The position numbers and the translations under genes were made by a program. Source: Nanobdellota archaeon (GTDB lineage Archaea > Nanobdellota > Nanobdellia > Pacearchaeales > GW2011-AR1). Taken from it: a stretch of 26,831 nt of DNA. The notes beneath the pieces were generated by a model, which saw nothing but the letters and a program-made list of their open reading frames with translations, made no database searches and was not told the origin of the DNA. The stretch lies in NCBI GenBank assembly GCA_038045705.1, contig JBBSXO010000009.1:1-26831 (forward strand), given 5' to 3'. Shown piece by piece: positions 2,842-4,447 of the stretch; the first letter of the stretch is position 1, and each line of letters starts with the position of its first letter.

Positions 2842-2913
2842 AGCCTCTGGAGGGAATCGAACCCCCAACCCTCAGTTTACAAAACTGATGCTCTGCCGTT
2901 GAGCTACAGAGGC
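2842..2913 (-). tRNA. tRNA-Thr(TGT)
   Basis: Reverse complement GCCTCTGTAGCTCAACGGCAGAGCA-TCAGT-TTTGTAA-ACTGA-GGGTTGGGGGTTCGATTCCCTCCAGAGGC-T folds as a cloverleaf with anticodon TGT and discriminator U. CCA is not encoded. Confidence 0.95.
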
Positions 2914-3557: not shown

Positions 3558-3887
3558 TTATTTAGCTATTTTTTCTCCTATTTGAATACGTGATACTCTT
3601 AATGCTTTCTTTGTGCCTTTTGATTTGTTACATACTGTGCATGTATAAAGAACTGGGAGTCTCTTTGTTTGCTTTGTTTTCCTCTTCCAAGATTTTATTG
3701 CTGGTTTTGAATATCTTCCTTGATTGCCAAAACCTCTACGTAAACCTCTTGCCATCACTCTGCTTGTTGAACCTCTTGATAATGGATTTGCTGATGAACG
3801 TGATTTTTGCTTTGCTACACTAACCTTTTGAGAGGTTTGCTTCTTGCAATATGGGCAGTATCTATTTGTTTTTTCTGGTAACTTCAT
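3558..3887 (-). CDS. rpl44e: 50S ribosomal protein L44e (eL42)
   Basis: MKLPEKTNRYCPYCKKQT...KQTKRLPVLYTCTVCNK zinc-ribbon pattern of eL42. Confidence 0.93.
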   Translation of the reverse strand: MKLPEKTNRYCPYCKKQTSQKVSVAKQKSRSSANPLSRGSTSRVMARGLRRGFGNQGRYSKPAIKSWKRKTKQTKRLPVLYTCTVCNKSKGTKKALRVSRIQIGEKIAK

Positions 3888-3950
3888 ATTATTCTGGCAG
3901 ATTATTTTAGCTAACCTCTTGTCGGCCAGGTGACTTGAGGGTTGATGCTG
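3888..3950 (-). promoter_or_regulatory. Structured 5' leader of rpl44e-rps3ae (candidate pseudoknot / r-leader)
   Basis: GC-rich island in AT-rich DNA. Hairpin AACCCUC-AA-GUC-[ACCUGGCC]-GAC-AA-GAGGUU; its loop CUGGC is complementary to GCCAG 6 nt before the AUG. TATA box TTTAAAAA at 3978-3971 on the minus strand. Confidence 0.55.
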
Positions 3951-4031
3951 ATATTTGTTTGAATTAGTGGTTTTTAAACCTTGTGAACATGTCCATGGAA
4001 ATGGTAAATTAATATTCTTGACTAGTTATGT

Positions 4032-4301
4032 CTAGGGTAATATTGTTTTCAATGCATCTGCAAAAGAATTCGGAATCCATGTTTGCCCGTTAGCATATCT
4101 TAATCCAAAGTAAGCTATTATTATTAATATTATTACAATGGTTATGTTTCTTTTTTTGGATTTTTTATTTTTTTCAGATCTTATTGCGAAGGAATATCCA
4201 CACTTAACGCAGAATGTGTCTGTTAAGTGGAGTTTTGTTCCACAAACAGGACAAAACTTATGATCTTTTTCTATATTGTTCTTTTTCTTTCTAAACATCA
4301 T
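4032..4301 (-). CDS. Zinc-ribbon membrane protein
   Basis: FCPVCG...FCVKCG zinc ribbon, basic patch, then one TM helix (ITIVIILIIIAYFGL). Confidence 0.8.
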   Translation of the reverse strand: MMFRKKKNNIEKDHKFCPVCGTKLHLTDTFCVKCGYSFAIRSEKNKKSKKRNITIVIILIIIAYFGLRYANGQTWIPNSFADALKTILP

Positions 4302-4375: not shown

Positions 4376-4447
4376 GGTCTCATAGTCTAGTGGTTAAGAT
4401 GCTTCCTTGACGTGGAGGAGTCGGCAGTTCGATTCTGCCTGGGACCA
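4376..4447 (+). tRNA. tRNA-Val(GAC)
   Basis: GGTCTCA/TGGGACC acceptor stem, CTTCC-TTGACGT-GGAGG anticodon arm, GGCAG-TTCGATT-CTGCC T arm, discriminator A. Confidence 0.95.

Follow-up and report, generated by a model that had tools for sequence, protein, structure and literature searches.

A pseudoknotted RNA leader precedes the rpl44e-rps3ae operon in a 26,831-nucleotide (nt) stretch of DNA from a Nanobdellota archaeon (contig JBBSXO010000009.1 of assembly GCA_038045705.1, in full length hereafter the window). The segment directly upstream of rpl44e is the 5′ untranslated leader of the mRNA for ribosomal proteins eL42 and eS1 in a Woesearchaeota/Pacearchaeota-type DPANN clade. It is a real, conserved and previously undescribed pseudoknotted leader, and a new ribosomal-protein leader candidate. 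From its sequence it is predicted to adopt an H-type fold, in which the apical loop of a P1-P2-P3 hairpin pairs with a strand just before the AUG (Table 1). As to function, we infer an autoregulatory ribosomal-protein leader that acts on translation initiation and is bound by eS1 or eL42, a reading to which we assign a probability of about one half.

A first-pass annotation of the window had proposed a structured leader of H-type topology specific to rpl44e-rps3ae, and comparison with relatives bore this out. The same architecture was present in 40 distinct leaders, taken from genomes of the same genus, two sister genera and metagenomes, with compensatory changes in all helices (both stems of the pseudoknot included) and a single fixed genomic context. 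It is on this conservation and covariation that the element is judged to be real. MAFFT alignments placed the 3′ strand of the knot out of register, so covariance-model alignments were used. Model R2, at E values up to 1, found 24 of the 40 sources; those it did not find were L015, L016, L050, L056, L060, L061, L062, L064, L065, L066, L067, L068, L070, L071, L072 and L074. Four leaders (L009, L013, L073 and L131) were truncated or misplaced by the model and were excluded from the formal count, their helices being read by script or by eye.

For the formal count, 20 distinct leaders were aligned with a model that contained no structure other than the knot helix. Across 313 cells, 93.6% were paired, compared with 81.5 ± 1.1% in shuffles, a level that 0/500 shuffles reached. 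Both sides changed in 13 of the 17 pairs against 5.8 in shuffled alignments (again reached by 0/500), and slid controls gave only 26-47% paired. The P2/P3 helix lies outside the aligning model; it was 98.6% paired and all seven of its pairs were compensatory (P2 4/4, P3 3/3). The knot helix was paired in 100% of the 20 leaders and changed on both sides in 4/6 pairs, in an alignment from a model that contains the knot helix and is hence biased toward it. The P1 columns 3-45 held AU in 17 leaders, GC in one and UA in one.

The individual variants display the same pattern of change. Beside the AGC/GCU of the window, P1 occurs as UGC/GCA, CGC/GCG, GGC/GCC and AUC/GAU. P2 occurs as CCUU/AAGG, UCUC/GAGA, UCGGUU/AACCGA and CCCAAA/UUUGGG beside CCUC/GAGG, and P3 as GCC/GGC, GCU/AGC, GUU/AAC and UUC/GAA beside GUC/GAC. 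For the knot helix there are about 12 forms, each loop having its own matching downstream strand: CUGGC/GCCAG, AUCUGGC/GCCAGAU, AGUAAGC/GCUUACU, AGUGAGC/GCUCACU, UGAGC/GCUCG, AGCUUA/UAAGCU, CCAGC/GCUGG, CAGGC/GCCUG, GGUC(A)/(U)GACC, CGGAC/GUCCG, UGCAGG/CCUGCA and ACAGG/CCUGU, with 4-bp forms AGGC/GCCU and GAUC/GAUC. A script found the knot pairing in 36/38 distinct leaders, and in L060 and L071 it was read by eye. When one representative per class was taken, the cognate match between loop and downstream strand was strictly the best in 7/11 classes. In the window itself, the 5-bp match was reached in 8/2000 shuffles of the downstream stretch.

Little of the primary sequence is widely kept across variants beyond the AC before P2, the AGC region and the UCU before the knot strand. 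Extra hairpins are inserted at two fixed places, namely J1/2 (L004, L010 and L060) and the linker (L009, L010, L012, L050, L052, L055, L056 and L061), and variable hairpins at fixed places are typical of structured RNAs. The J1/2 insertion of L004 (= L044/L045), L010 (= L053) and L060 comprises two hairpins, the first of which carries a GUAA or similar tetraloop and has compensatory changes of its own between L004 and L010. A coding reading of the leader was rejected, as the hairpin insertions and compensatory changes ignore any reading frame. Loop lengths across the variants are those of a compact knot, with the loop strand preceded by 1-2 nt and followed by 0-1 nt, a knot of 5-7 bp and, in most variants, a linker of 8-12 nt; judged from general knowledge, these loop and linker lengths are feasible for an H-type fold.

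The occurrence of the element was then delimited by genome and metagenome searches. An eL42 gene was present in 56/61 related genomes. The element was found in 15/15 readable rpl44e upstream regions of the same genus, at an equal distance from the TATA box (the leader of L011 is interrupted by Ns and is not among the 15). Covariance model R1 gave one match per genome in 14 of the 17 genomes of the genus, all at rpl44e. Over 151 genomes of the order it gave six matches at rpl44e, in three genera of one family, and two sister genera of this family also bear the element (L131, L132); a seventh match (L133) was weak and was discarded as spurious. A metagenome scan with the eL42 protein yielded 80 further loci and 23 further distinct versions of the element. 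Loci with eL42 at or above about 61% identity mostly had the same architecture, the exceptions being leaderless rpl44e genes at 58-67% identity (L076-L079, L081). In more distant loci rpl44e is leaderless, its ATG following the TATA box by about 30 nt.

When 185,579 species genomes were scanned for the pattern irrespective of context, 12 matches were returned. Eight were in DPANN genomes labelled Woesearchaeota, Pacearchaeota or Nanoarchaeota, all directly upstream of eL42. The four bacterial matches had no eL42 gene in the surrounding locus and no knot partner visible by eye. Two contigs of one cyanobacterial metagenome-assembled genome (L134 and L145) share an identical stretch of about 100 nt, present in at least two copies, whose GCCUC...GAGGC hairpin matches the pattern; it is probably an unrelated repeat, without knot partner or eL42 gene. 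The element occurs once per genome, every archaeal match lying directly upstream of rpl44e-rps3ae or of a small open reading frame (ORF) coupled to rpl44e, and in all genomes searched it is tied to the rpl44e operon alone. Leaders of 115-145 nt that are unlike the pseudoknot motif precede rpl44e in L019, L080, L083, L084 and L095 and may represent separate, independent leaders of this operon.

Within the window, the coordinates first reported for the TATA box, the stem, the CUGGC loop strand and its GCCAG partner were all correct on the minus strand. Two details required amendment: the spacer before the AUG had been written AAUAU and reads AAUAAU, and P2 had been extended to AACCCUC/GAGGUU, of which only CCUC/GAGG covaries. 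It had also been noted that the leader is GC-rich and that rpl44e departs from a mostly leaderless gene set, and both observations held. The GC content of the leader is 0.444, compared with 0.272 in the flank at 3951-4031 and 0.327 in the genome. Genome-wide, the start of the TATA box lies 25-34 nt before the ATG in 151/338 TATA-ORF pairs, indicating a largely leaderless genome, whereas for rpl44e this distance is 91 nt. The AGC of P1 begins exactly 21 nt past the 8-nt TATA box in 12/15 leaders of the same genus and 20-23 nt past it in the remaining three. From this spacing, together with the TATA-to-ATG spacing of leaderless genes, the transcript is expected to start at or just before A3949. 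A second promoter near the ATG was considered and rejected: the A-rich linker, at -22 to -15, is about 7 nt too close for the usual TATA spacing and is not kept as a TATA-like word among relatives. A link to the upstream zinc-ribbon gene was likewise set aside, since the upstream neighbour varies among relatives whilst the leader stays with rpl44e. Other long GC-rich ‘leaders’ in the genome, those of S15 and HisRS, proved to be tRNA genes.

The 3′ strand of the knot ends 4-9 nt before the first AUG in 28/40 variants and 10-14 nt before it in a further 4/40 (the distances in L060 and L071 were read by eye). The earlier claim that the pseudoknot covers the ribosome-loading region stands for the 28 variants with the short spacer, but in eight others the knot lies 20-49 nt from the AUG. 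Shine-Dalgarno-like words in the genome start at -16 to -6 and precede 28% of genes without a nearby TATA box as opposed to 9% of those with one. The 16S rRNA of a congener ends in ...GAUCACCUCCU. Two short likenesses to these sequences occur in the window’s leader: P2 has the sequence of the core Shine-Dalgarno:anti-Shine-Dalgarno duplex (3937-3940 with 3915-3918), and UCACCU in P3 and the loop (3928-3933) equals six bases of the congener’s 16S 3′ end. As neither is kept in divergent variants, both are probably coincidental. In L009 (= L144), 49 nt separate knot and ATG, and a GC-rich insertion holds GGAGGU 6 nt before the ATG; this species seems to have added a Shine-Dalgarno-type start behind the knot.

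Five distinct lineages (L064, L067 (= L069), L070, L071 and L073) have, between the leader and rpl44e, a small ORF of 19-26 codons that is located 56-77 nt upstream of the rpl44e ATG and whose stop codon, in 5/5, overlaps the rpl44e start (ATGA). The knot 3′ strand precedes the AUG of this ORF by 7-14 nt in all but L064, where the distance is 31-45 nt. The products begin MKQQ(K/N)... and 3/5 contain FEL(H/Y)SS; they could be leader peptides or a small protein not recognised so far. L096 has an ORF of 15 codons, MKVLKIFDFQLHFSK, that may be related and is apparently leaderless.

In the autoregulatory reading, the knot would occupy the place of a Shine-Dalgarno duplex on the 30S subunit, and from this position it would govern initiation at an AUG lacking a Shine-Dalgarno sequence. 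If eS1 or eL42 were produced in surplus over rRNA, the free protein would bind and stabilise the fold, and the stabilised fold would block or trap the initiating subunit, so that less would be made of both proteins, whose translation would be coupled. Such a circuit would constitute negative feedback, as is exerted on ribosomal-protein synthesis through the bacterial S15 and S4 pseudoknot leaders. Of the two proteins, we consider eS1 the slightly more likely ligand. Within archaeal initiation complexes uS11, eS1 and h26 hold the Shine-Dalgarno helix, placing eS1 at the mRNA exit channel beside that helix, and eS1 also contacts the internal ribosome entry site (IRES) of hepatitis C virus; in the assembly of the yeast ribosome eS1 joins early and eL42 late (as described in PMC9932298). 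The adjacency of rpl44e and rps3ae does not help in naming the ligand, as it is maintained throughout the order and does not track the presence of the leader. A more elaborate version, which we regard as speculative and rather improbable, would have the knot helix substitute, within the mRNA itself, for the Shine-Dalgarno:anti-Shine-Dalgarno duplex: eS1 on the ribosome would recognise it and recruit and position the mRNA in the manner of an IRES, and free eS1 would compete and shut the operon off. If true, a ribosomal protein of archaeal/eukaryotic type would be both receptor and feedback sensor of its own mRNA.

Besides the bias in the knot alignment, several results weigh against the autoregulatory reading. 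Spacers of 20-49 nt in 8/40 variants, some with added hairpins or, in L009, with GGAGGU, mean that direct occlusion of the start site cannot be universal. The fold of the single sequence is no better than that of shuffles: the leader alone has a minimum free energy of -9.7 kcal/mol (z -0.51), 51/200 shuffles fold equally well, and the hairpin region alone does not exceed shuffles either (z -1.36), so thermodynamics alone cannot carry the claim. The 4-bp knots of L072 and L073 likewise do not rise above shuffles, 585 and 626 of 2000 of which do as well. The divergent versions share few invariant nucleotides, so a sequence-specific protein site is not obvious, and the choice of eS1 over eL42 comes from general knowledge and not from the leader sequence. 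Linear likeness to rRNA was not found beyond chance words of 8-9 nt in the window’s own 23S and a congener’s 16S (the latter used because 16S is absent from the window’s own assembly). A blastn-short search of eight leaders against these two genes returned exact words of 6-9 nt and one of 11 nt with a mismatch, all at E values of at least 0.87 among the matches listed.

The same placement of the knot could serve initiation without any ligand. The knot helix, or P2, would then replace the Shine-Dalgarno:anti-Shine-Dalgarno duplex, dock in the chamber that eS1 and uS11 line at the exit channel, and set the AUG in the P site, making the element an activator or tuner of translation and not a repressor site. 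The 4-9 nt spacers of 28/40 variants fall in the range of the genome’s Shine-Dalgarno-like words, the leader itself has no such word whilst long-spacer variants can have one (GGAGGU in L009), the window’s P2 equals the core duplex and eS1 is located at the chamber (PMC9932298). Nevertheless, sister lineages express these genes through leaderless mRNAs, so that no initiation device is needed; moreover, many variants have other P2 sequences, and a long coaxial hairpin would be bulky for the chamber. On balance we consider this explanation unlikely. A role in mRNA protection, by which a paired 5′ end and a compact knot would shield a highly expressed message from 5′-to-3′ decay with no feedback, would agree with P1 lying at the presumed first transcribed nucleotides and with the compact, conserved structure. 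It would explain neither the fixed place of the downstream knot strand just before the AUG nor the restriction to the rpl44e operon, and a simple 5′ hairpin would suffice for it; we hold it to be distinctly unlikely.

It might also be that the leader is bound by a factor other than eL42 or eS1, for instance a small RNA, an assembly factor or a different ribosomal protein. The sequence itself does not point to any particular ligand, and among known leaders there are some whose binding protein is the product of a gene other than the first. The operon, however, contains only the ribosomal-protein genes for eL42 and eS1, and known leaders bind the product of the operon that they control (Eckert and Weinberg 2020, PMC7247131, main text), which leaves another factor improbable. 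The first-pass annotation had offered a ligand-sensing switch as an alternative, in which binding of an ion or small molecule to the pseudoknot would switch the start region between open and closed. In size and topology the leader does resemble small pseudoknot riboswitches, and its knot adjoins the start codon. A riboswitch nevertheless fits poorly given the single ribosomal-protein context, in all genomes searched, and the loop, which varies freely whilst its pairing is kept; few unpaired nucleotides are invariant and no Rfam riboswitch matched. We therefore rate this possibility as very small.

Table 1. Features of the rpl44e-rps3ae locus in the window; strands of the RNA are named in the 5′ to 3′ direction of the transcript.
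Feature	Position in window	Strand	Remarks
TATA box TTTAAAAA of the rpl44e-rps3ae promoter	3971..3978	-	box end 21 nt before AGC 3949-3947
Leader	3949-3888	-	between TATA box and rpl44e AUG at 3887; 62 nt
P1 5′ strand AGC	3947..3949	-	pairs with GCU 3911-3909; at the inferred transcript 5′ end
J1/2 internal-loop strand AUCAAC	3941..3946	-	terminal AC before P2 kept in nearly all variants
P2 5′ strand CCUC	3937..3940	-	pairs with GAGG 3918-3915
2x2 purine internal loop	AA 3936-3935 and AA 3920-3919	-	between P2 and P3
P3 5′ strand GUC	3932..3934	-	pairs with GAC 3923-3921
Apical loop ACCUGGCC	3924..3931	-	holds CUGGC 3929-3925, the 5′ strand of the predicted pseudoknot helix
Hairpin 3′ strands	3909..3923	-	GAC 3923-3921, AA, GAGG 3918-3915, J2/1 UUA 3914-3912, GCU 3911-3909
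A-rich linker AAAAUAAUCU	3899..3908	-	would run back along the hairpin; conserved UCU at its end
Pseudoknot 3′ strand GCCAG	3894..3898	-	pairs with CUGGC 3929-3925; 6 nt before AUG
Spacer AAUAAU	3888..3893	-	6 nt; without Shine-Dalgarno-like word; AUG at 3887-3885
rpl44e, ribosomal protein eL42 (L44e), 109 aa	3558..3887	-	NCBIfam, Pfam and solved-chain matches
rps3ae, ribosomal protein eS1 (S3Ae), 196 aa	2966..3556	-	start 2 nt past the rpl44e stop

The two genes were identified by profile and structure matches. The rpl44e product falls under the curated cut-off of NCBIfam L44e (E 3.7e-13) and under that of Pfam Ribosomal_L44 (20.4 bits), and it matches archaeal eL42 chains of known structure over its whole length (E 9e-9). 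The rps3ae product matches Pfam Ribosomal_S3Ae at E 8.8e-17, over the cut-off, and NCBIfam S3ae at E 1.6e-19. The gap between the two genes is 2-60 nt elsewhere in the relatives and about 500 nt in L048, L049 and L052, where there is some insertion. A tRNA-Thr gene (window 2842-2913, minus strand) follows rps3ae after 52 nt, on the same strand, and could share its transcript; a tRNA-Val gene (window 4376-4447, plus strand) lies upstream on the opposite strand. The 23S gene used above (L124, G000:C1:166840-170647) is 3808 nt long compared with a model of 2987 positions, and the 16S matches of two congeners (L128, L129) span about 2.6 and 2.1 kb, which suggests that the rRNA genes contain insertions or introns.

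Archaea have so far yielded very few cis-regulatory RNAs. The element described here could reveal how RNA is recognised by eS1 or eL42 away from the ribosome, or how an internal start codon that lacks a Shine-Dalgarno sequence is used where messages are otherwise leaderless, and it bears on the balance of ribosomal proteins in reduced, symbiotic archaea. Its reach is limited by a narrow range (three genera of one family and their metagenomic kin) and by organisms that are uncultured. Being short, rich in covariation and furnished with natural compensatory variants, it is at the same time a ready-made subject for in-vitro work. A search of the whole window with Rfam 15 at gathering thresholds gave only four tRNAs and no leader family, and at E values up to 10 the best match in 3700-4150 scored 15.5 bits (E 5.3) against a threshold of 50. 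Its novelty, which the first-pass annotation had put forward as a possibility, was thereby upheld with respect to Rfam, no family reaching threshold for the leader.

The nearest mechanistic analogue, by analogy of fold and position, is the pseudoknot of Escherichia coli rpsO. The rpsO (S15) leader forms an H-type pseudoknot in which a hairpin loop pairs next to the start codon; once bound by the protein, it is believed to trap the 30S subunit. Both are thus H-type pseudoknots in the 5′ leader of a ribosomal-protein mRNA, beside the start codon. They belong to different domains of life and concern different proteins (we know of no bacterial homologues of eL42 and eS1), and the rpl44e leader has no sequence or model match to the Rfam S15 leader. 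Unlike rpsO, the rpl44e start has no Shine-Dalgarno sequence, and protein binding here is putative. The mRNA of phage T4 gene 32 offers a second parallel: it has a pseudoknot at its 5′ end, followed by an A/U-rich stretch to the start codon, and is autoregulated by the nucleic-acid-binding protein that it encodes, which binds single strands cooperatively. The order of a 5′-terminal knot before an A/U-rich stretch is shared with the rpl44e leader; the two leaders are not homologous.

The preQ1-type riboswitches (PMC9410914) share with the rpl44e leader a compact H-type pseudoknot by the ribosome-binding region; they bind a metabolite through conserved pocket nucleotides and precede metabolic or transport genes. 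The rpl44e leader, unlike these, has one ribosomal-protein context and a freely covarying loop. In archaea, L7Ae binds a k-turn in its own mRNA, and this 5′-region structure has been proposed as a means of translational regulation (PMC5539422). This system likewise joins an archaeal ribosomal protein to a 5′ mRNA structure, as is proposed for the rpl44e leader; its site, however, is a k-turn, whereas the rpl44e leader is a predicted pseudoknot in which no G.A/A.G k-turn signature was seen by eye.

A description of the present element was not found in the literature searched, which included the main text of PMC7247131. In that main text there are no occurrences of L44, eL42, S3Ae as a protein name, eS1 or DPANN. 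The same work, by Eckert and Weinberg (2020), nevertheless contains what is nearest in kind, namely four archaeal leader candidates: S15 of Halobacteria, S15 of Methanomicrobia, eL15 of Euryarchaeota and L4 of Archaeoglobi (PMC7247131). As presented in the main text, none of the four occurs in DPANN or concerns eL42, or eS1 as ligand, and eL15 is the sole family of the four restricted to archaea and eukaryotes. Like the rpl44e leader, they are supported by covariation, lie upstream of archaeal ribosomal-protein operons and are proposed to be autoregulatory, and the two S15 motifs control operons that also contain rps3ae. The rpl44e leader differs from all four in its fold, in its lineage, which is DPANN, and in the first gene of its operon, which is rpl44e (PMC7247131, main text).

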